Source: Rubripirellula sp. (GTDB taxonomy: Bacteria > Planctomycetota > Planctomycetia > Pirellulales > Pirellulaceae). Taken from it: a stretch of DNA of 64,000 bases. Within the stretch, counting starts at the first letter, position 1. Each line of letters begins with the position of its first letter. The translations under genes were made by a program, and so were the position numbers. Under the pieces are notes generated by a model. That model saw only the letters and a list, made by a program, of their open reading frames with translations, was not told where the DNA came from and did no database searches. This document shows, one piece after another, positions 1,192 to 12,680 of the stretch. Location of the stretch: the NCBI GenBank assembly GCA_965216875.1, contig OZ244207.1, positions 5,632,001 to 5,696,000 of the forward strand, written 5' to 3'.

Positions 1192-1307
1192 GCGGTCAGC
1201 GCCGTGACCTCTGTTGTCAACCCTCAACACTTTGAGGGCGAGTTTGATTGCACTATAGGAAATCGCCCCTACACTGAGGGTAAGGGTTGCGTTTTCGCTC
1301 CCTTCTT

Positions 1308-1360
1308 GAGGCCGGCTAGGGTAGCTCCCGAACAGCGACCGTTCATCGCCCGCCGGCTCT
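1308..1360 (+). ncRNA. Candidate structured RNA, possibly c4/CI-like phage antisense RNA
   Basis: Closing stem GCCGGC(1311-16)/GCCGGC(1352-57) encloses hairpins GGG-TAGCT-CCC and GCGA-CCGTTCA-TCGC; lies just upstream of the element's first phage-like gene; family assignment from memory only. Confidence 0.4.
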
Positions 1361-1397
1361 CTTTCTAAGGAAGGAACACGTCGGGGAGGAACGACCG

Positions 1398-2297
1398 ATG
1401 CAAGAAGTCAGTAGTGCCCTTGAGGTAGTCAAGAATCTGTGCAGCCATGCTGGTGATATTACGGCAACAACCCGGCTAGTTGTAGCGAGATGGAATGCCG
1501 GCGATCGCGAGGCGGGACTTACGCAACAGCTCACCGAGGCAGTGCTGCATGACATTAACAATCTCCGGATTGCAGCGGAGCATTTAGATGTGCTCGATTC
1601 CTTGTTGATAAAGGATGGAACGTCTTCTCCCATTGCTGACAAGCTATTCGCCTTGTCCCAAGGCTCAGAAAGAAAGACTGCTCGGTATCGCAACACTCCT
1701 GTCGAAACTTCGCTGGGGTTGCTCGCGCGCCAGGTGCGGGACTTTCTGTTTCGAATTGGAAGCAACGTTGATAGCGTTATCGGGGAGTATTTTATCGAGA
1801 CCAGTTTCTTCGCCGATCCAACGTACTGGCTACGGATCCGGAATCAACTTGAGGTAGAGCTTCGGCGGGCGGGCTGCAAACTTCACGGTCCACTTGCCAA
1901 CGCGTTAGATCTTGCGCTGGTTATACCGTCTGAACTAGCAGCTGATTCGTTGAGTGAGCTCTTTGACTTCATTGAGTCGACTGGGTCAGCCTCTGAACAA
2001 GACGTCCCTACTAAGAAACCGATGACGCCTGCAGAAATAAAAGGCAAGGCATATGCGCTGATTGCCAATGGTGAACGCTACTCTTCCTGTCGAGAACTCG
2101 CGAATGCCGTGGGATGCGCTCGTAGGGCAAAAGCCATCCAAGAAGTATGGCGACAGTGTGGCGAGCGAATAACCAATCCACGTGCAGTGGACCTCCATTG
2201 CAATATTCAAGACCCCTCAGACCAGCTTAACCAACTAATCGACGAACAGGCTTGCGACGACGCCTCTACGGGCAAGCCACAACGCCGCCGAGTTTGA
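1398..2297 (+). CDS. Hypothetical protein with probable C-terminal HTH (element regulator)
   Basis: 299 aa ORF, GGAGGA RBS; C-terminal 'YSSCRELANAVGCARRAKAI' is HTH-like; followed by a palindrome. Confidence 0.6.
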   Translation: MQEVSSALEVVKNLCSHAGDITATTRLVVARWNAGDREAGLTQQLTEAVLHDINNLRIAAEHLDVLDSLLIKDGTSSPIADKLFALSQGSERKTARYRNTPVETSLGLLARQVRDFLFRIGSNVDSVIGEYFIETSFFADPTYWLRIRNQLEVELRRAGCKLHGPLANALDLALVIPSELAADSLSELFDFIESTGSASEQDVPTKKPMTPAEIKGKAYALIANGERYSSCRELANAVGCARRAKAIQEVWRQCGERITNPRAVDLHCNIQDPSDQLNQLIDEQACDDASTGKPQRRRV

Positions 2298-2302
2298 GCA
2301 TC

Positions 2303-2341
2303 CTTGCTTAGTGGCGCGCCCGGGCACGCCCACTAAGCAAG
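2303..2341. promoter_or_regulatory. 39-bp inverted repeat (operator or hairpin)
   Basis: CTTGCTTAGTGG ... CCACTAAGCAAG perfect 12-bp arms around quasi-palindromic CGCGCCCGGGCACGC. Confidence 0.55.
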
Positions 2342-2443
2342 AATCTTATCCCGTGTTTTTCGGACGGCAGAGCATTTCGCTGGGCCGTGCGTGCCCATCT
2401 CGCCGGATTGTGAAGGCAGGAGTTATTCACAAGAGGCGATTCA

Positions 2444-2653
2444 ATGCAAACTAAGGTCCCGGTCCAGCTGCTGACCGCCCGTGTCATCGCGGAGCGGATC
2501 GGCGTGCCGATACATCGCGTCCGGCGAATTCTGGAAACTCGGCAAGACATCAAGCCTGCGGCAATGGCGGGCAGGACGCGGTTGTACAACGCAGCAGCGT
2601 TGGCTCGTGTGCGATACGAACTTTCCGTTATCGACGCGAGGCGGAGCAGATGA
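2444..2653 (+). CDS. Small winged-HTH protein (excisionase/AlpA/MerR-like)
   Basis: 'LLTARVIAERIGVPIHRVRRIL...GRTRLYNAAALARV'; GAGG RBS; first gene of a coupled operon. Confidence 0.7.
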   Translation: MQTKVPVQLLTARVIAERIGVPIHRVRRILETRQDIKPAAMAGRTRLYNAAALARVRYELSVIDARRSR

Positions 2654-2829
2654 GCGACAAGTTGACGAAACCACAAGCAGATGCGCTCGCAGTTCTGCTC
2701 CTTACATTAATGGCACCGGAACTGCCGAAGTCGAAGGAAGTGGATGACCCGGCACTTTCCCCGACACATTCAATTGCCTTACCGACCAGGTGCAACGCCA
2801 ATTCCAACCAGCATGGAGGTAACGCATGA
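2650..2829 (+). CDS. 59-aa hypothetical protein missing from the ORF track
   Basis: My translation MSDKLTKPQADALAVLLLTLMAPELPKSKEVDDPALSPTHSIALPTRCNANSNQHGGNA*; ATGA start/stop overlaps with both neighbours. Confidence 0.65.
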   Translation: MSDKLTKPQADALAVLLLTLMAPELPKSKEVDDPALSPTHSIALPTRCNANSNQHGGNA

Positions 2830-3638
2830 GAGGGTTTGCAAAACTCGAAAGATCGATTCTTGAGTCGTGTGTCGCTGACTCTGACGAGCTGCTAGGCCTT
2901 TACACCCGACTGCTACTCACGGCCAATTGGAAACCGCGGACCTTTAAAGGGATTCGAATCGAGCCAGGCCAGATGGTGCTATCCGACCGGTCACTGCGTG
3001 ATCGGCTTTATGGTGGCGCGGATGAGGCACCTTGCATCAATACGGTCAAGAAACGACTGGCCATGCTCGCATCGCTAGGTGTGATTAGAGTTGAGACCAT
3101 CAAACGACATCGGATTGTGTCGATCGCGTCAAGTATTGGCGCGGAGGGTGCGTCAAGCTTTGGCGCATGGCCCCCAGTCACGCCAGATTCTGACGCGATC
3201 GATGGCGCACAACTTGGTGCGAACTTTGGCGCAGAAAGAAGAAGAGAAAGAAAAGAGAAGAATGGAGAAGATACTTCCGTCAATGTCGAGCTGTCAGGCC
3301 GGTTCAAAGATGTCTTTGACGGTTGGAACGCTAGAGCTCAGGTAGTAGGCGATCCGTCACGAATGCCCTTGGTTCGCTCATTGAGCAAAGACCGACAGAC
3401 AAAGCTAAAGACGCGCCTAAGCGAGCAGACGTTCCGGGAGAACTGGCGACGTGCGATCGCCATGCTTCCGATACCAGCCAAGCGGGGATTCGATTGGTCA
3501 CCCAAATTTGATTGGCTCATCCAGAACGAGACCAACATTTTGAAGTTGGTCGAGGGCAACTATCACTCAGCAGACCCTCACGCTCGTGCTGGCGTCGACT
3601 TCGATCCGGAATACGGTGACTACGGGAAGGGTTTTTGA
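2826..3638 (+). CDS. Phage replication initiator (lambda O-like)
   Basis: N-terminal wHTH 'LLLTANWKP..IEPGQMVLSDRSL'; C-terminal 'WSPKFDWLIQNETNILKLVEGNY'; internal iterons; upstream of DnaC-like ATPase. Confidence 0.75.
   Translation: MRGFAKLERSILESCVADSDELLGLYTRLLLTANWKPRTFKGIRIEPGQMVLSDRSLRDRLYGGADEAPCINTVKKRLAMLASLGVIRVETIKRHRIVSIASSIGAEGASSFGAWPPVTPDSDAIDGAQLGANFGAERRRERKEKNGEDTSVNVELSGRFKDVFDGWNARAQVVGDPSRMPLVRSLSKDRQTKLKTRLSEQTFRENWRRAIAMLPIPAKRGFDWSPKFDWLIQNETNILKLVEGNYHSADPHARAGVDFDPEYGDYGKGF
3126..3271. repeat. Putative replication origin: iterons plus purine-rich tract inside the initiator gene
   Basis: TGRYGC at 3137, 3161, 3191, 3203, 3215, 3227 (last four 12 bp apart); GCGTCAAG-N2-TTGGCGC twice 24 bp apart; almost pure purine run 3234-3271. 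Confidence 0.55.
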
Positions 3639-4249
3639 TGATCACAGCTGCCGAAACCTGCCTTGACTATCTAGACCGGAAAGTTGGGGAACGGTACCGC
3701 AACTGCACGATTGACGGATTCGAACTCGTTCATCCTTCGGTCGAGCATGCCAAAGCACTCTGCCGGAACTACGTCACTAGCTTTCGGAGTCACTTCGCTG
3801 ACGGACGGGGCCTTGTCTTTATTGGCCCGAAGGGAACGGGAAAGGATCACCTAATGATTGCGGTCATGCGAGCAATTATTCGAGGCTACGACATTCAACA
3901 GCCAGGCCGCGTTCGCTATGAGGACGGAATGAAGTTCTATCGTCGATGCAGAGATACATTCAAATGCGACGTGCCAGAAGAAACCATTATCGAGCCGCTT
4001 TATTTCCCACACTTGCTCGGCCTTTCTGATCCCATTCCTCCGAGTGGTGAACTGTCCGAGTACGAGCAGAAAGTTCTGTTCGCACTTGTCGACCAAAGAT
4101 ACCGTCATTGCAGGCCAACCGCCGCAACCATCAACGTCCGCGAACGCGATGAGCTTGACCGCCGCATGGGAAGCCAAATCGCTGACCGCCTTTGCGATAG
4201 AGCAATTGTCGTGAAGTGCTTTTGGAAGTCCCACAGGAACGTACAGTGA
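3635..4249 (+). CDS. DnaC/IstB-like AAA+ helicase loader
   Basis: Walker A GPKGTGKDH; 'LFALVDQRY...PTAATIN'; 'MGSQIADRL...WKSHR'. Confidence 0.85.
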   Translation: MMITAAETCLDYLDRKVGERYRNCTIDGFELVHPSVEHAKALCRNYVTSFRSHFADGRGLVFIGPKGTGKDHLMIAVMRAIIRGYDIQQPGRVRYEDGMKFYRRCRDTFKCDVPEETIIEPLYFPHLLGLSDPIPPSGELSEYEQKVLFALVDQRYRHCRPTAATINVRERDELDRRMGSQIADRLCDRAIVVKCFWKSHRNVQ

Positions 4250-4356
4250 CTCCACTGCGGGTCCTTTCTGAGGGCCAATGTAAACGGTGTGCCACCCCCC
4301 TCGACGCAAACAATGACACAGTGCGTGCGTGTCCGCCAAACTGACAGGAGCCTAAC

Positions 4357-4578
4357 GTGCGAAAGATCAACACGGATGGATTGAAGATCGTTGTCGTCCC
4401 CAGGGCGAGATGCCCTGAGTGTGGAGGGCATGCCTTAAAGACCGTTCGATCCGTCAGATCTCAAGACATGTCCGCGACACGTTACACAGCTTGCAAGTCC
4501 TGCGATGCGAGGTTCATCGTGATCGTCGATCCGTCAATTGGTCCAGAATTTGGACGAATCGAGATGGACATTTCGTAG
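4357..4578 (+). CDS. Ogr/Delta-like C4 zinc-finger protein
   Basis: CPECG ... 'TRYTACKSCDARF'; 73 aa; AGGAG RBS. Confidence 0.6.
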   Translation: MRKINTDGLKIVVVPRARCPECGGHALKTVRSVRSQDMSATRYTACKSCDARFIVIVDPSIGPEFGRIEMDIS

Positions 4579-4611
4579 TATTCACTAACTTGCTTCACGG
4601 AGTGAATAGAC

Positions 4612-4824
4612 ATGCCAACTTTAGACGTTATCGCCATCGGCCGACTGTCCGGCGAATTGCAGACACCTGTGCAACGGTTACGAGAGATCGTGACTGAGTT
4701 ACGTATCGAACCAACTGCGATCATCAACAATATCGAACACTTCGATCGCATCGATGCGGAACGAATCGCCATGCACATTCGAAGCACCCATCCCCGTTCG
4801 GGTCCTTCCGAGACATTGGCGTAG
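4612..4824 (+). CDS. Small winged-HTH protein, paralog-like to 2444-2653
   Basis: 'VIAIGRLSGELQTPVQRLREIV..EP..IINNIEHFD' aligns by eye with the 2444 protein; GGAG RBS. Confidence 0.6.
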   Translation: MPTLDVIAIGRLSGELQTPVQRLREIVTELRIEPTAIINNIEHFDRIDAERIAMHIRSTHPRSGPSETLA

Positions 4825-5026
4825 CTCTCAGAGATTTACGCCCTCGACCGATCCAGACACAATCCGTCCGGCATGCCTGTTCATTTCGGCAGCGCGTCCT
4901 CCTGGAGGGGCCTACCCCTGTCGCGGGTTCCACTCCGAACACAAAACTCGCACGCAGGATTTTCCTGAGGGCACCACCACCACCACATTCACCCAGCCCC
5001 AGGATTTGGAAAACAAGGAAACGACC

Positions 5027-5734
5027 GTGCTCTACTTCATTGAAGGCATCAAAGCGACAAGCAAGGACGTGCTGGAGCAGCATGGTCTTGATCACTTGGT
5101 TGGTAATCAAGCGGGCGGCCGCGAATCGGGCACTGGCCCTGGTGGGAAACCTGGCTGTTTAGTCGTCGATCAATCCCGATTCAAGCGGATCCAGTTTTCT
5201 CCTGACCAGCAAACTTGGGAGCCACGGTTCGGTTATCCCGGCACTTGGGTTGGCATGTGGAACGACAGCCCACCTGGCCCGGAAGAATTGGCGAGTGAAA
5301 AGCAACTTGATGGCCCGGTCGTTCGGTTGCTCGATGGGAACCTCTGGCAGATTCCGCTGTTGCGGGAATGGTCTTTGTTTGAGGGCGATGTGGTCTATGA
5401 GTGCTGTCTGCCGAGGGTCTTTATGCAATGTCAAGAAACGGGGAGATTGAAACCTGGGGATGTTGTGCGGCAGTATCGGCAACTGTGGGACGACTCGGTC
5501 ACCGTTACTGAAGCCATGTTGGGTGGTGGACGCAGCGACAATGATCCTGAGTTCGATAGCCGGTTTTTGGATCAGTTCTTGGGCTCGCTCTTGGCCGCCA
5601 ACTATCAGGTTTCGCTAACCGAAATCAGCTTGCTTCAGCTCATCGATGAGGGTCTTTCTGGCGAAGTGATTCGAGCATCCATTGGCTGGCAAAGCGTTCT
5701 TGATTTGTCCGCTGAACTTCAATGCCAAAACTAA
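5027..5734 (+). CDS. Phage hypothetical protein in tail-assembly-chaperone position
   Basis: GTG start after AAGGAA (track ORF begins at 4754); directly upstream of the tape-measure-like gene; function inferred from position only. Confidence 0.5.
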   Translation: MLYFIEGIKATSKDVLEQHGLDHLVGNQAGGRESGTGPGGKPGCLVVDQSRFKRIQFSPDQQTWEPRFGYPGTWVGMWNDSPPGPEELASEKQLDGPVVRLLDGNLWQIPLLREWSLFEGDVVYECCLPRVFMQCQETGRLKPGDVVRQYRQLWDDSVTVTEAMLGGGRSDNDPEFDSRFLDQFLGSLLAANYQVSLTEISLLQLIDEGLSGEVIRASIGWQSVLDLSAELQCQN

Positions 5735-5747
5735 GGATGGTACAGCC

Positions 5748-7832
5748 GTGGCAACAACCGTCGTTGAAATGACTGGCGAAGAAAGGCGATTGATTCAGTC
5801 GCTCCAGAAGGTCATCGCAAAGGAAGCTGAACACGCGAACCAACTAGAACGCACCGGGCGGGCTGGCGGAAAGGCTGGCGATGGCATTGACCGAGGGATG
5901 AAGAGGGCCGAGAAGGCGTCCGTACTGTCGCTGAAAGGAATCCAGCGAGCCGGAACCGATTCATTTAGGAAGCTCAGGACCTCCGCTGCTAGTGACCTCG
6001 CATCTGTCGCAGGCGGGTTCACATCGCTTGAAGCAGGGCTGGGTAAGTTTGTTGAGCTTCAAAACGCGGCAATCGCAAAGAACAGAGAGTTGTTCTCTGG
6101 TCTGCAATCGACAGAAGGAGGTGATCGACGGTTGGTCCAGATCGCTGAGAATGCTCAAGACTTCAGGCAATTGCGTGGGCGGGCAGATGAAATAGCTGGC
6201 AAGTTTGGGATCGAACGTACTGACGCGCGCGGCCTAGTGTTCAGTGCTCGCTCAGAGAACTTTGAAGACACGCTTGAGTTCATCGCCAAGAATGCCCAAG
6301 TCATAGATACAACGGCCCAGAGCACGGTTGCGGGCCAACTGCCGCAGCTGTTCAAAGGCAGTGGACTAACGGGGACCCAGTTCATCAATGCTACGTTGGC
6401 TGCTGCAAAGGACAGCCGAGCCGACTTCGAAGCGATTGCAAGAGTTGTCCCAATCGCTGCGCAAGGTGGTTCAGTCGCAGGTGCAAAACCTGAAGAGATC
6501 CTTGCGGCAACGTCCGTGCTGCCATCAAGGACTACTTCACCCGAAGTCGCGGCCAACCTAATCAAAGCCTTTGCCACGAAAGTTGGGTTGGATACTGGGA
6601 CTACTGCCGAGGATCGCAAAGCGTTCGAAAAAAAAGAAGCGGACCGCCTGAGCTCGGCACAACTCAGGTTGCGAAGCCTAACCGAACGACGGGACGACCT
6701 GCAGGAAGATCTTGCGGACGCTCCACGAAGCCGCAGGGCGGATCTTGAGAAGGCTTTGGCAAGGGCGAACCGAGCGATTGACGAGTTTGATCGGTCGCAG
6801 CTCGACAAGAGATCCTTTGCGGCAAGAGAGTCACTGTCTGGCGTTGGCCTGCTTGGTGCTGTAAGAAAACTCGATTCACTGCCGGAAGCGCTTCAGCGTG
6901 ACTTCCTCGGTGAAAGCCAGGAGCTTAACCAGGGATTCATTCTGCTAAAGAAGAATCTTAATACGATCGAACAGCGGGCTGCAACAATCAGCGAGCAGTT
7001 TGGTCTTACCGGAACCGGTCGATCGATCACTGCAAAGCGGCGAGCGATCACATTAAGGAATCCGGAGCTCGCCACCCTTCTTGAAGAACGCAAAAGCCGA
7101 ATTGCTCTCGAGATCGAACGTGACGACCGGGCGTTACTTGAAGGATCCAGCCAAGCAAAAGCTAACCGAGCCCTGGCGACCGCCGAACGCGACGGCTCAT
7201 CCGCTCTTCGTATTGCTGCAGCGGAGTCGTTTGGCGAGACAGCGACGGGATTAGGCTTTTCTCGTGAGAATGCGATCACGCTGGTAGCTGGCAACGACCT
7301 TGGACAACTCGAGCGGGACTTGGCGTTCTCGTCACGCTCTAGCCCTGGCCAGAAGCTTGGTCCGCTCGTCAACGCGGTAAAAGAACTTCGGCGAGCTCGT
7401 GGCGTTGACCCAACGGCACTTGTCCCCCGCGATGCGGCCGCCGGCTACCTGCGAAACGTCACGGGTCGTGAAATCTTCGCCAACAACATCACTGATACCG
7501 AGAGGCTTGGACTCACAAACCAAATTGTCGCGCAGGCAAAGAAAACAACCGGTTTTGGCCGAAGTGCGACCATCGGAGTTCTCGATGCATTGGGGCCGCT
7601 TGGCAACTTGGCACTTGGATCAAAACAACTGGCTGTCAATGAGGGCCTGGACGCCGCAAAGGAGATCCGAGCAGGCCTAGAGGCACAGGCGGCTGCCACT
7701 CGTGAACAGACCGAAGTGTTGAGGCAAATGCAGACGGATTCACAGGCGACCGCTTCAGCGACGCAAGCAACGGCAGCGAACACGCAACCAAGCCAATCAT
7801 CATTTGGTGACGCACAAAGGGCAGGAAGATGA
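5748..7832 (+). CDS. Tape-measure-like protein
   Basis: GTG start after AAGGA; Ala/Gly-rich and helical; core 'AAAKDSRADFEAIARVVPIAAQGGSVAGAKPEEILAATSVL...AANLIKA' resembles the TP901-family tape measure core. Confidence 0.65.
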   Translation: MATTVVEMTGEERRLIQSLQKVIAKEAEHANQLERTGRAGGKAGDGIDRGMKRAEKASVLSLKGIQRAGTDSFRKLRTSAASDLASVAGGFTSLEAGLGKFVELQNAAIAKNRELFSGLQSTEGGDRRLVQIAENAQDFRQLRGRADEIAGKFGIERTDARGLVFSARSENFEDTLEFIAKNAQVIDTTAQSTVAGQLPQLFKGSGLTGTQFINATLAAAKDSRADFEAIARVVPIAAQGGSVAGAKPEEILAATSVLPSRTTSPEVAANLIKAFATKVGLDTGTTAEDRKAFEKKEADRLSSAQLRLRSLTERRDDLQEDLADAPRSRRADLEKALARANRAIDEFDRSQLDKRSFAARESLSGVGLLGAVRKLDSLPEALQRDFLGESQELNQGFILLKKNLNTIEQRAATISEQFGLTGTGRSITAKRRAITLRNPELATLLEERKSRIALEIERDDRALLEGSSQAKANRALATAERDGSSALRIAAAESFGETATGLGFSRENAITLVAGNDLGQLERDLAFSSRSSPGQKLGPLVNAVKELRRARGVDPTALVPRDAAAGYLRNVTGREIFANNITDTERLGLTNQIVAQAKKTTGFGRSATIGVLDALGPLGNLALGSKQLAVNEGLDAAKEIRAGLEAQAAATREQTEVLRQMQTDSQATASATQATAANTQPSQSSFGDAQRAGR

Positions 7833-8062
7833 AAATCGAGAACTTCAACGATTTCGCTACAGCGTTTGAAATCATGGGTGACAACTTTGCCGAATCAGCC
7901 GAGGGGTTTGAGACGATGCAGGCAAAACTTGCTGGGCTACCAGATGAGTGGAAGCCGTTGCTTGAACAAGTACGCGTCATGAAGATCACTTCCAGACTGC
8001 TGCGGACACAAGCGAACACAGCAGCGGCGATTGCTCAAGAGATCGCAGACGGTGTTGGATAG
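7829..8062 (+). CDS. Small helical hypothetical protein
   Basis: 77 aa; ATGA overlap with the tape-measure-like gene; AGGAAG RBS. Confidence 0.6.
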   Translation: MKIENFNDFATAFEIMGDNFAESAEGFETMQAKLAGLPDEWKPLLEQVRVMKITSRLLRTQANTAAAIAQEIADGVG

Positions 8063-8071
8063 CGGAGCTAA

Positions 8072-8517
8072 CGGTGGTCAATTCGGCCACCCATGGAGTC
8101 CATTTGGTGTGCAGCATGCTGCACACCGTCGAAGTGCCAAGGTGGACGATCCGCATTCGACGGCTGGTCAAATTAGCCACCCGCAAGGGCGTGTGAGTTA
8201 CACGCCCATAAGACTTGAAAACACCAGCAAACTGAAAGTCCAGGGTAGATGATTTAGCTACCCGCGATCGATCTGTCCAGAATTCTGGACAGTTCGGGTT
8301 GGTCGAATTAGCCACCCTGACCTTACATAAGAATTTGTGGAGGGTCGGCACGTATGACCTTACTCAAGAATTTGAGGAAGGTTCGGAATAGAGCTTGCGC
8401 AAGTGTTTGCGTAAGGCTGTGGTACAAATTATTGCACCACAGCCCGACCCTAAACTGTGCGCAATTGCGCACAGTTTCGCCGCCCGCACAGGGCTTCGTG
8501 TCAAATTCTTGAAACAC
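8072..8517. repeat. Array of ~11 short inverted repeats with AATT-like cores
   Basis: Includes perfect palindromes CTGTCCAGAATTCTGGACAG (8273-8292) and AAACTGTGCGCAATTGCGCACAGTTT (8452-8477), and four GGTRG-N9-CYACC-type copies. Confidence 0.8.
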
Positions 8518-8844
8518 AGCGCCTTGCAACCGAACAGACCGAGCCGAACTTGACGACGAGCTCCCGTGTCGTGACAATGCGAGAGCTGTCGTGAAGGACT
8601 AATAACCGACACGACTTGACCGCTGGATTCAAAACCTCCGGCGGTGACAAAGCCAACTACTACCATTCTGACGATTTAGAAATGACAACGCCGCACGTTT
8701 TGTGGACCACCGGAAGCAATGAGCCTGCGCAGGCAGGGGAGCAACCGACCCGACCCGGGGTAGTAGCCGGGTTATTAGCAGGACGTGCGGCGTTGTCGTG
8801 CGCTGGCGGAATCGATCCGTTGGCGGAAAGGTTGAACCAGACCC

Positions 8845-9324
8845 ATGAAGTCTCGTTCGAACGAACAAAAGCGTTTGGCAGTTGAGCGATCGGCCAAGGT
8901 AGCTTACGAGGGTCTTTTGACGGCCCGCGAGTTGTACGCTGGCGGCGACGCAAAGGCAGGTTTCTATCTTGCTCGGTCGTTGTGGCTCGTTGCCGTGATG
9001 GACTCAGCGACACGATTCTCACCTAACACGAAATCACGCACGAGTCGGTGCGGGCTGATGGCGTTGTTTCATGGCAAACGAATCGACCAAGAGACCTTCG
9101 AGTATTGCTCAGCAATCGATGTGAAGGTCACGGGAGGTTGGGCAGTAGCTACAGACACGCCTAAAATCGTCGAAGCCGCAACCGCGTTGCTTGAAGCGAC
9201 CGAATCCAACAGTTGCCGCAAACGTCGATTGGCAGCGATTGAGAAGGCCAACGCTAAACCCGGCCGGATCCGTCAGCTGGCAACCGCTGCTTGTGGTTTG
9301 TTTGCCTTCGGAGGTGCGTCTTGA
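8845..9324 (+). CDS. Hypothetical protein
   Basis: 159 aa; ends in GGAGG-containing 'GGAS' coupled to the next gene. Confidence 0.55.
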   Translation: MKSRSNEQKRLAVERSAKVAYEGLLTARELYAGGDAKAGFYLARSLWLVAVMDSATRFSPNTKSRTSRCGLMALFHGKRIDQETFEYCSAIDVKVTGGWAVATDTPKIVEAATALLEATESNSCRKRRLAAIEKANAKPGRIRQLATAACGLFAFGGAS

Positions 9325-9509
9325 AAAGCGACCTAGACAATCCCCGAGTGCGATTCCTCCCAACACCTGAAGAGATCAGGCAGCGTGCGAGTGAAGTCCG
9401 CTCGAATTGGTCCGCAAGGATCCGCGAGGAAAGACGCGTCAAGGCTTACGACTCACCTTGGAGCGTTCCGGCCTTCGTCCTTGAAGAGAACGAGCTACGC
9501 AGCCTGTAG
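9321..9509 (+). CDS. Small hypothetical protein
   Basis: TTG start overlapping the upstream stop, GGAGG RBS; 'LPTPEEIRQRASEVRSNWS' motif. Confidence 0.55.
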   Translation: MKSDLDNPRVRFLPTPEEIRQRASEVRSNWSARIREERRVKAYDSPWSVPAFVLEENELRSL

Positions 9510-9524
9510 CGACTGACAAACAGC

Positions 9525-9552
9525 AGACCGGGAATGGATGCCCGGTCTTTTT
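9525..9552 (+). terminator. Intrinsic terminator-like hairpin upstream of the integrase
   Basis: AGACCGGG-N8-CCCGGTCT followed by TTTT. Confidence 0.55.
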
Positions 9553-9594
9553 GACCGAACGGAAACCACCTCATCACATGGAAGACAGATTCAC

Positions 9595-11307
9595 ATGGTC
9601 ACTACAGCAGTTGGCTACATTCGAATGTCAACGGACGACCAAGAGGCATCACCAGAACAACAGCGGGAAGCAGTAGCACAGTTCGCGACTGACAACGGCT
9701 ACAAAATCATTCGCTGGTATCAAGACCTTGGAATCAGTGGCGACAAGACAGAAAAGCGAATCGACTTTCAAAAGATGATTGCAGCTGGTTCGACTGGCGA
9801 GTTTGATGCGATCCTTTGCTGGGACCAAGACCGTTTCGGGCGTTTCGACATGCTTGAGGCTGGCCGCTGGATCCACCCACTAAGGCAAGCTGGTGTCCAC
9901 TTGGCTACGGTCACCGATGGACCGATCGACTGGACACAGATGGCCGGCAGGTTGGTTTACTCGGTCAAACAGGAAGGCAAACACCAGTTCTTGCGTGACC
10001 TTTCAAAAAACGTTTCCCGCGGGATGGACAAGCTTGCCGCCGAGGGCCGATGGGTCACAGGTGTTCCGCCGATCGGTTACGTGGTCGACGAAGACAGGCG
10101 TCTTCAATTAGGACCACATGAAGACGTGGCAATCGTGAAAGACATCTTCCGGAAGTACTTGGCCGGTGATTCCACCCGACAGATCTCGCAGTGGCTCTCG
10201 GACCGTGGCATCCTTAGCCCGAAAGGCAAGAAGTGGACGGCAACAGGAATATCAAACGTGTTGAAAAACGAGCGATACCTTGGCTACCTCGTCTACAACC
10301 AACGAACAAGCTCGAAGTACAAGGATGCTTCCAACCCGCAGGGCAGAATGAAGACGAAGCCACGCGAAGAATGGACGATCGTGCCCAACACTCACCCTGC
10401 CCTGGTGACTCAAGAAGACTTCGACGCAGTTCAAGAACTATTCCGAACCAACACACGGAAAACGGCACCAAACAGCGGCCGTAAGTACGCCCTTTCCGGT
10501 CTGCTTCGATGCGGTTGCTGTGGGTTCACGATGATGGGCGACAAGTCCAACGGTGTCCCGTCCTACACTTGCTATTCGTATCGGGAACGCCCCAACTCAT
10601 GCGAGCGGTACAACGTCCGAGAGGACCAAGGCCTCAAGGCCATTCTGCGGGAGCTACGAACACAGTGGTTTGACAAGTACTTCACAGAATCACACATCGA
10701 GCAAATCAAGTCAGCGATGCGGGACATGCTCAGCGGTGAGCGTGCAGACCTGGGCATCGTGAAAGGCCATCTGGCGAAGGTGGAGGGCCAGATTGAGCAG
10801 GCGAAGCGACGATTGGTCGAAGTACCCGCCGACATGGTTCGGCACGTTTCAGAGCGTCTCAGGGAGCTTGAGGATCAGCGTGATTCACTGCTGGTCCAGC
10901 TGCAGCAATCAAACACGCCCGTTGAAGAGCAAGTCTTGGCCGTAGAGGAGCGCATCAACAGCGCGATCGAGTGGCTCAATTCACTCGAGCAAATCGCTGA
11001 AACAAAGTACGACAGCGATAAGGTCAATCGGATGCTACGACAGTTCATCGACCGCGTTGAGCTCCACTTCAAACGCAAGCCAATCGGAAAGCTTAAGAAG
11101 TACCACCGTTGTGAACTTGTTGGCGGTGTTGTCTACTTCCGGTTGAATGGCCTGCAGTCCGTCTTTAGCAAATCCATGAAGTTGCAAACAGGGGACCGGA
11201 GATTTTGGACATGTACTTTTCGATTTGCGGTGGCGTGCAATTGCAATGCCGACGCGGGTCGCTTCGGTAGCCACACGGACAAGGATTCGCCGCTGCGATC
11301 AACATGA
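9595..11307 (+). CDS. Large serine recombinase (integrase)
   Basis: Catalytic 'GYIRMST', 'DQDRFGR', recombinase domain 'PPIGY', zinc ribbon '[11 protein letters not shown]...YTC...C', coiled coil. Confidence 0.95.
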
Positions 11308-12340
11308 AGTCCGATGGAAACGTTGTGCTGCGAAGCGCTCGTGAGATCGTGACCACGCCGTCTTCGAGTGGTTGACGCATCACTTCCAACGTCTTGCGAT
11401 TGAACTCGGGCAGTTCGTCCAGAAACAGAATCCCGTTGTGCGCCTTGGAGATCTCGCCTGGTGACGGCGGACTTCCGCCGCCCACCAAACCCGCGTCGCT
11501 GATTGTGTGATGAGGGCTGCGAAAGGGTCGTCGCGCAAGGAGCGGCTGGCCCGATGGAAGTTGGCCAAGCGCGCTATAGATCCGCGTGGTCTCGATCGAT
11601 TCCCCCGCACCCAACTGCGGCAACACCGTTGGCATCCGCTTGGCCAACATCGTTTTTCCACTGCCGGGTGGACCAATCATGAGAAGATTGTGGCGACCAG
11701 CTGCGGCCAACGCCATCGCGCGCTTGGCCGACTCTTGACCTTTGACGTCACCAAAGTCGACATCATAGATGCTGTATCTTTCGAACAACTTGTCGAGACG
11801 ACTGGGCGCGGGGGTGAGATCGACTTCGCCGGCAAAAAACGCGACCGCTTGCGCAAGACTATCGACCGCGATCACATCGATCCCCTCGACCACGGCCGCT
11901 TCACTTGCGTTTTCGCGCGGCACCACAAGGCCCGTGATCCCTTCGTCCTTTGCCGCTTCCATCGCGATGGAAAGAGCCCCTTTGACGGGACGCGTGTAAC
12001 CTTCCAGTGCCAACTCACCGACCACGGCGTATTGATCGAGCCGATCACTTTGCAGTTGACCACTGCCGGCAAGGATGCCAAGCGCGACTGGCAAATCGAA
12101 CGAAGGAGCCTGTTTGGGTAGGTCACCCGGGGCAAGATTGATGACGACGCGATCGTGCGGACGTATGAAACCGCTGTTGACGATCGCCCGTTCAACGCGA
12201 AAGGTGCTCTCCTTCACTGCCGCGTCGGGAAGCCCAACGAGGATGGTCTTTGGCATCGCGGCTACCGAGAGGTCGACTTCGACGTCGACCGGCATCGCTT
12301 CGATGCCAAGCAGCGTAAAGGTTTTCAACCGCGCAAGCAT
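11165..12340 (-). pseudogene. comM: ComM/YifB Mg-chelatase-like ATPase, 5' part interrupted by the element
   Basis: '[10 protein letters not shown]', '[10 protein letters not shown]', GPPGSGKT, 'FRSPHH', 'LFLDELPEF', 'NPCPCG'; breaks after 'ISGPL' where LDRID is expected. Confidence 0.9.
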
Positions 12341-12680
12341 GGCCCCTGCCCCACAAGAGATTGATTCCAATCGAAAAGTCACCCAATTCGATTCTGCCCG
12401 AATCCTGCCACCATTGGGTCTTCTCAAATCGTGACGTCATTCGAGTCGTCAATCAACCCTATTAGATAGGGATCGCCATCAAAGAGCGGGCATGGAATTG
12501 CGGTCGGCATCTGCCAGCAAGAGATTTCGGCGTTATCCAACGCCGAATCGCAAACGCAAAATGCACCCGAGCAGGTAAAGCTTGCTCGAGTGCATTTGTC
12601 TCGTTCAGAAGGATGTCTTGGCGACAAGCCTGTCTTTTGGTCAAGTCATCGCCAGGATGTTTGGTCGGTCCGCATGGGGA

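Follow-up and report, generated by a model that had tools for sequence, protein, structure and literature searches.

What would a mobile element do with a noncoding strip of about 450 bases that holds some 13 palindromes of differing sequence? Such a strip lies between positions 8060 and 8530 of the 64,000-nucleotide stretch of Rubripirellula sp. DNA analyzed here (contig OZ244207.1; "the window"). A preliminary description of this locus had listed about 11 palindromes with a shared AATT core, had read them as operator or parS-like sites, and had proposed that a phage satellite collected them from helper phages as a decoy or docking array.

A dense cluster of dissimilar palindromes

The cluster of palindromes is real. 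When Watson-Crick dyads were scored against 300 dinucleotide shuffles, seven with a score of ≥5.5 were detected between positions 8060 and 8530; the shuffles averaged 0.75 and did not exceed 4, so that the density is above that of shuffled sequence. At a score of ≥6.5, six dyads are found against 0.17 in the shuffles; at ≥4.5, nine are found against 2.6, and nine were reached in 1 of the 300 shuffles. The region is the top 470-nucleotide tile of the window by dyad density and the sole 500-nucleotide segment of the genome with three strong AT-centered dyads. The genome segments that are denser in dyads of all kinds are clusters of repeated host palindromes.

The palindromes listed in the preliminary description are all present at the coordinates given there (Table 1). 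Their number rises to about 13 with two strong dyads that had been missed (units 2 and 4); the small 11-bp dyad had been missed as well. The AATT core is not common to all units: the core is CATG at 8106 and GTGT at 8394. The units come in two geometries, odd-centered 19-mers and even-centered 20- to 30-mers, and three sets are related in sequence, namely, units 1, 3, 5, and 7, units 8 and 9, and units 6 and 12. Between units 8 and 9, one pair has changed in a compensatory manner and the other differences are compatible with wobble pairing. No convincing copy of any unit was found elsewhere in the 8.26-Mb genome with 3 to 5 mismatches allowed. The region had also been described as lacking a convincing ORF. 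ORFs of 73 to 121 codons do cross it; for the four that were scanned, neither Pfam nor PHROG gave a convincing match.

Table 1. Features of the satellite and units of the palindrome array, in window positions. Percentiles refer to the fit to the ParB-gene palindrome profiles; peptides are the translations in the class frame.
Feature	Position	Strand	Remarks
Replication module	2826..4249	+	O/DnaD-like initiator, DnaC-like loader
Ogr/Delta-like zinc ribbon	4357..4578	+	Ogr_Delta E 0.025, weak
Probable tail assembly chaperone, 235 aa	5027..5734	+	Foldseek E 7e-4 to tail assembly chaperone
Tape measure protein	5748..7832	+	PF10145 E 2e-7, just under curated cutoff
Unit 1	8073..8091	.	Odd-centered 19-bp dyad, ParB-gene odd class, GGQFGHP; 99.94th percentile among host odd dyads; 14/19 identical to nearest of 4 planctomycete gene sites
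Small perfect 11-bp dyad	8093..8103	.	Dyad scan
Unit 2	8106..8127	.	Perfect 22-bp dyad; even-class fit weak, 97th percentile
Unit 3	8163..8181	.	Odd-class dyad, AGQISHP; 99.97th percentile; 13/19
Unit 4	8187..8207	.	21-bp dyad; absent from profile hits
Unit 5	8243..8263	.	Divergent relative of units 1, 3, and 7; below profile threshold
Unit 6	8269..8296	.	Near-perfect 28-bp dyad; 93rd percentile; outer arms common to unit 12
Unit 7	8298..8316	.	Odd-class dyad, VGRISHP; 99.56th percentile; 12/19
Unit 8	8319..8346	.	Even-class dyad, DLT*EFVEG; 99.7th (99.74) percentile of 7,043 host dyads
Unit 9	8356..8383	.	Even-class dyad, DLTQEFEEG; top (100) percentile
Unit 10	8394..8415	.	Even-class dyad, ELAQVFA*G; 99.97th percentile; 19/26 to L147
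Unit 11	8415..8444	.	Even-class dyad, AVVQIIAPQ; 99.86th percentile; 20/26 to L141
Unit 12	8452..8477	.	Perfect 26-bp dyad; even-class fit weak, 97th percentile
Unit 13	8498..8515	.	Weak dyad, borderline even class; 99.0th percentile when centered correctly
Large serine recombinase	9538..11307	+
comM 5' part	11165..12427	-	Broken at about 11190

The array is carried by a tape-measure satellite in comM

The element that hosts the array is a tape-measure-type phage satellite inserted in comM. The satellite context that had been suggested holds for window positions 1300 to 11200 (genes were scanned in 1398 to 11307). This part encodes an integrase (the serine recombinase), a replication module of its own with an O/DnaD-like initiator and a DnaC-like loader, a tail module consisting of a tape measure protein and a probable tail chaperone, and small HTH-like proteins. 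Of the ORFs scanned between 1398 and 11307, none matched a capsid, portal, or terminase family, and a genome-wide search for two terminase families was negative. The array lies directly downstream of a plus-strand gene. The 235-aa putative chaperone belongs to a family with 2,037 representatives, and in planctomycete prophages its gene sits ahead of that for the tape measure protein; a PDB-wide fold search with this protein returned Z scores of 4.9 or less and none of ≥5.

The earlier size estimate of about 10 kb has to be abandoned. Measured from the break, the 3' part of comM is found 43 kb farther left, and the insertion, with 26-bp inverted ends, is 43 kb long, of which ∼32 kb is cargo on the left side of the window (G000:C1:5599930-5633200, ending at window position 1191). 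The cargo part, read as ORFs only, presumably contains a type II secretion/pilin-like gene cluster and a 2,255-aa repeat protein, both labeled from motifs. The length of the insertion is about that of one phage genome. No ParB or ParA family was found among 18 scanned ORFs, and a profile of phage ParB-like proteins matched neither the 43-kb insertion nor the host genome.

The satellite contains further dyads outside the array. Five imperfect dyad repeats at approximately 3125 to 3240, inside the initiator gene, probably mark the origin; they share no 15-mer with the array at ≤2 mismatches. A 15-bp odd-centered dyad at 4539 to 4553, inside the Ogr-like gene, resembles unit 6. Elsewhere in the genome, a second small element (G000:C1:601672-606739) combines a resolvase-like gene with a serine recombinase and adjoins a tRNA-like sequence; its recombinase shares 68% DNA identity over 312 bases with that in the window.

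Phage ParB-like genes contain a palindrome of their own

Phage ParB-like genes often hold a linker that is coded by a palindrome. A degenerate pattern derived from units 8 and 9 had 14 matches in IMG/VR, half of which (7/14, from three independent sequences) lie in frame inside ParB-like genes, just before an HTH-like stretch, with the positions left free by the pattern fully or largely symmetric. The linkers in the three independent sequences read DLPQLIAEG, TLPQLIGEG, and DLPQKVAEG, and the Pfam assignments of the three genes are ParB_N with HTH_ParB and Dam for one, a DNA methylase domain for another, and DUF5131 for the remaining one. The other seven matches comprise two single intergenic dyads and five chance-like occurrences.

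The ParB-like family (1,656 hits; 454 viral loci) includes many proteins fused to methyltransferases and has matches in 57 of 401 genomes of the host's class and in 1 of 44 of the host's family. In a set of 110 loci collected by protein homology, from which nine repeated sites and one locus without a dyad were dropped, the best dyad of the linker region scored ≥5 in 97 of 100 loci, mostly at the linker position, and 68 of these 97 dyads are even-centered in one codon phase. The sequence of the arms varies freely and their symmetry is kept. A second subfamily has an odd-centered dyad just after the HTH, before an R-x-G-x-D-G motif; this class occurs in planctomycete genes and in the phages Ecliptus (ESGQVDHFS), Rivra, and MT835746. 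An Atlas search with the odd-class HTH returned only scores under 0.9.

Since a long dyad stays at a fixed place beside the HTH despite rapid change, the intragenic palindrome is most likely the ParB-like protein's own parS-like loading or operator site, specific to each phage. Of 11 ParB-like gene neighborhoods, including one that did not cover the intragenic site itself, a single one showed a second near-copy of the palindrome; three phage records showed none.

Across the phage ParB-like genes (L130-L239, L248-L250, and L253), a long, hypervariable, often perfect palindrome almost always sits beside the HTH in a fixed codon phase; we found no paper that describes it. Two unrelated phages (L116 and L125, both at 2001-2024) each have a single intergenic even-class dyad with the same 10-bp arms. 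What looked like a second array near L125 consists of one intergenic dyad together with weak dyads in ORFs.

Seven array units fit the ParB-gene palindromes

The units at 8073, 8163, 8298, 8320, 8357, 8394, and 8415 fit the profiles of the intragenic palindromes in two geometries. Thus, 7 of the ∼13 units have the dyad geometry and half-site profile of the ParB-gene dyads; the other six, which are unassigned, do not or are borderline. Against the even-class profile, built from 65 ParB-gene sites, units 8 to 11 fall inside the score range of the training sites and outrank 99.7% of 7,043 host dyads and 98.8% of the 412 AT-core ones; units 2, 6, 12, and 13 are weak. Units 1, 3, and 7 fit the odd class, which has only 7 or 8 training sites and was picked after its likeness to unit 1 had been seen. 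The geometry of unit 1 is that of ESGQVDHFS in gp58 of the Gordonia phage Ecliptus. The best match of the array to phage ParB-gene sites is unit 9, identical at 22 of 26 positions to the site of L151; its translation, DLTQEFEEG, is comparable with DLPQLIAEG in L117.

Scored in this way, the array is the densest profile cluster in the 8.26-Mb genome, with seven top-0.5% hits per 500 nucleotides compared with ≤3 elsewhere (1,286 hits in all). The count stays at seven when families that were initially found by means of the array pattern are left out. Permuting the outer columns of the profiles yields seven hits in 2 of 1,000 trials, at unrecalibrated thresholds, and permuting the arm pairs of the units does so in 0 of 2,000. 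The class frames of units 5, 8, and 10 contain stop codons, which fits with noncoding copies.

At least seven array units are therefore best described as probable copies or mimics of the phage ParB-gene palindrome, a relationship that takes the form of resemblance. The suggestion of operator or parS-like sites gains support for these 7 of the ∼13 units, which resemble palindromes within phage ParB-like/HTH genes, the place where the preliminary description had proposed to look. Particular helper phages may be the source of these sites; an exact donor was not found.

Searches for donors, helpers, and related arrays

The best identities of array units to candidate donor sites were 22/26 and 14/19. 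An exact scan of IMG/VR with unit 12 gave 0 matches, and two tighter patterns gave 1 and 5 matches, near chance and outside ParB genes. BLAST of the array or of single units against phages and plasmids returned only matches with E > 2 or none, and BLAST against 400 genomes of the family returned only short chance matches. A pattern common to units 6 and 12 had one hit in 340 other genomes, against one control hit. The RhuM and ORF6N families, considered as further possible sources, had no match in 5 genomes. A recurring match to 8100-8127 (up to 26 of 28 bases) proved to be the run of codons for GHLVFSTLHT in a large family of ATPase-like genes, which we take to be GspE/PilB, and is attributed to chance. 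The gene family with GHLVFSTLH is conserved and multicopy and is present in many relatives.

A search of 275 loci (2.0 Mb) revealed no further copy of the array. The relatives of the tail chaperone and tape measure genes belong mostly to full prophages, the named records being planctomycetes, and no array was found in those of their loci that were read; the same holds for the recombinase relatives L085 to L087. Two planctomycete elements (L037 8987-12414 and L039 9368-18422) combine a related tape measure gene with replication or integration genes. Neither has an array, and no head genes were seen in the 21 kb read; these elements are candidates for an unstudied satellite family. The modular gain and loss of sites that the preliminary description had proposed to compare had no counterpart, as no related element with an array was found.

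No ParB-like gene was found in 44 partial regions of prophages and related elements, most of them reached through shared tail genes, and tblastn of the element's tail genes against 11 planctomycete ParB-like gene neighborhoods gave no match. No helper phage was identified among the prophages with shared tail genes or in the ParB-like gene neighborhoods.

A proposed docking strip and its alternatives

From the sequence evidence, we consider it rather probable that the array is a noncoding double-stranded DNA strip that docks the ParB-like proteins of several helper phages. The partner protein would come from the infecting helper phage, since no such gene was found in the satellite or the host. 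Each type of site is present once, an arrangement better suited to breadth than to capacity: for any helper that infects, some unit would be near enough to its own site. As to the outcome, we tentatively favor recruitment, in which the helper's ParB-like clamp would load on the replicating satellite DNA. Titration of the ParB-like protein off the single site of the helper, that is, the same binding with another outcome, seems unlikely. Many ParB-like proteins are fused to methyltransferases, and for that reason a recruited helper clamp might give the satellite DNA the helper's modification or "self" mark. A bolder version, for which we would claim somewhat less than for recruitment, is that ParB-like methyltransferases read the hypervariable palindrome of their own gene as a phage-specific "self" address and that satellites keep a catalogue of helper addresses to load or disarm these enzymes.

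The alternative that survives best, although we judge it improbable, is a neutral relic: units derived from phage ParB-like genes, through palindrome recombination or as decayed in-frame repeats, with no function now. It would account for the single occurrence of the array and for the mismatches and stop codons in its units, and a decayed gene would also leave 8 of 11 units in one plus-strand reading frame. However, the array packs end to end two geometries that belong to different gene subfamilies, the gene context stops at the dyad ends (as judged by eye), several long dyads are still perfect, and the neighboring genes of the element retain long open frames.

A further candidate, which we regard as quite improbable, is that the units are operators or origin sites bound by small HTH proteins or the initiator of the element itself, or by regulators of the host. 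This would leave unexplained why seven units fit the palindromes of phage ParB-like genes, the initiator repeats are unlike the array units, and the host genome has no convincing unit copies elsewhere, even though the element does encode small HTH-like proteins and a zinc-ribbon protein, a unit 6-like dyad lies inside the zinc-ribbon gene, and a promoter-like site (8550-8578) follows the array. Such sites could account for units 2, 4, 6, 12, and 13.

A multihairpin noncoding RNA, or a single-stranded DNA structure, had been named as the alternative in the preliminary description. The plus strand, just 3' of a plus-strand gene, folds with a z score of -9.7, and the differences between units 8 and 9 are compensatory or wobble compatible. 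Yet the minus strand also folds (z, -8.5), and an unbiased count of G-T versus A-C mismatches, 7 to 4, reveals no wobble bias; it removed an apparent plus-strand G-U bias that had come from a hand count. Rfam 15 at E ≤ 1 returned only two hits, with E values of 0.4 and far below the gathering scores; several dyads are loopless; and the sequence class is that of intragenic DNA dyads. No RNA sequencing run with this region was listed. Neither strand bias nor Rfam thus supports this explanation, and we hold it, too, to be quite improbable. The last candidate, a host REP/BIME-type palindrome cluster or chance, is largely refuted and has very little probability left: the host does have repeated-palindrome clusters of similar density, some of which have a few arm letters in common with units 1, 3, and 7, but these consist of repeated identical units whereas the array units are single copy in the genome, and the density and class fit of the array exceed all controls.

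Comparison with known systems

Satellites mimic the cos or pac sites of their helpers, and plasmid incompatibility loci titrate proteins via operators or iterons. The proposed docking strip resembles both in that a parasite has on board a DNA site of the helper and thereby uses or sequesters the helper's protein. The cases of cis-site mimicry and titration known to us involve one or two sites for one protein, whereas the array would be a catalogue of variant sites for one protein class. The mimicry of a helper cis site by a satellite is thus already known, and a collection of differing sites for the ParB-like proteins of helpers would be new; no description of such an array was found in open-access text. 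Other known arrangements fit less well. A guide array of the CRISPR/TIGR type is not indicated, the array having no constant repeat and the scanned ORFs no such effector. The array units differ from the initiator-gene repeats, as an iteron origin of the element would not lead one to expect, and host REP/BIME membership finds no convincing unit copy outside the array at 3 to 5 mismatches.

ParB-family proteins load on parS sites. The array dyads, at 16 to 26 bp, are the type of site that serves a ParB-like dimer for loading and spreading, as exemplified, in the accessible part of its description, by ParT-parS of plasmid SCP2, a ParB-family system with parS sites (PMC12260392). Unlike a ParABS centromere, the array has no parA or parB found in cis, and its sites are of many sequences, with differing arms and geometry, rather than of one consensus. 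For these reasons, partition of the element itself by the array is unlikely. Orphan phage fusions of the ParB-CTPase fold with methyltransferases have been reported, in the text accessible for that study, to be enriched among prophages, their role being undefined so far (PMC12704722). They are the protein class whose genes hold the palindromes that match the array. The terms "palindrom" and "inverted repeat" are absent from the main text of that report, and its accessible portion gives no DNA target or satellite mimic (PMC12704722).

Tape-measure satellites have been described for E. coli, with SUSP1/F5 as the examples in the accessible portion of the report (bioRxiv 10.64898/2026.10.15.759431). 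As far as that portion goes, they are like the present element in combining a recombinase with a tail module, in lacking capsid and packaging genes, and in having noncoding elements that counter a helper system (bioRxiv 10.64898/2026.10.15.759431). According to the same portion, the noncoding element of SUSP1/F5 is a decoy guide RNA with GGYNN repeats, directed at VIPR, whereas the present array consists of DNA dyads, and the second structural gene there encodes a baseplate protein rather than a tail chaperone.

That a parasite has kept seven look-alikes suggests that the ParB-gene palindrome is a working site worth stealing. If the docking reading is correct, satellites would have a new way to widen their helper range with noncoding DNA, and the array might preserve a record of earlier helper phages. 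If the "self"-address reading is also correct, the array would be a repeat-less DNA memory of helper phages.

Additional observations

Eight of 11 units are in class phase in one plus-strand frame, open from 8031 to 8252 (hand-calculated P of ∼0.03, post hoc), and one minus-strand frame (7986-8666) has a single stop in 166 codons; neither frame is significant after correction. On the 3' side of the array, inverted repeats span 8630 to 8702 and 8684 to 8797 (20 nucleotides at 80% and 15 nucleotides at 100%). The promoter-like site precedes these repeats, which are possibly part of a structured leader. No relatives were found of the ORF at 8845 to 9324. Three sequencing runs with other organism labels contain short pieces identical to the window. 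Finally, a 611-base contig (run X6, record 22) matches the array exactly over 335 bases (8097-8431) and has 276 other letters before 8097; this contig is either a chimera or a variant left junction.
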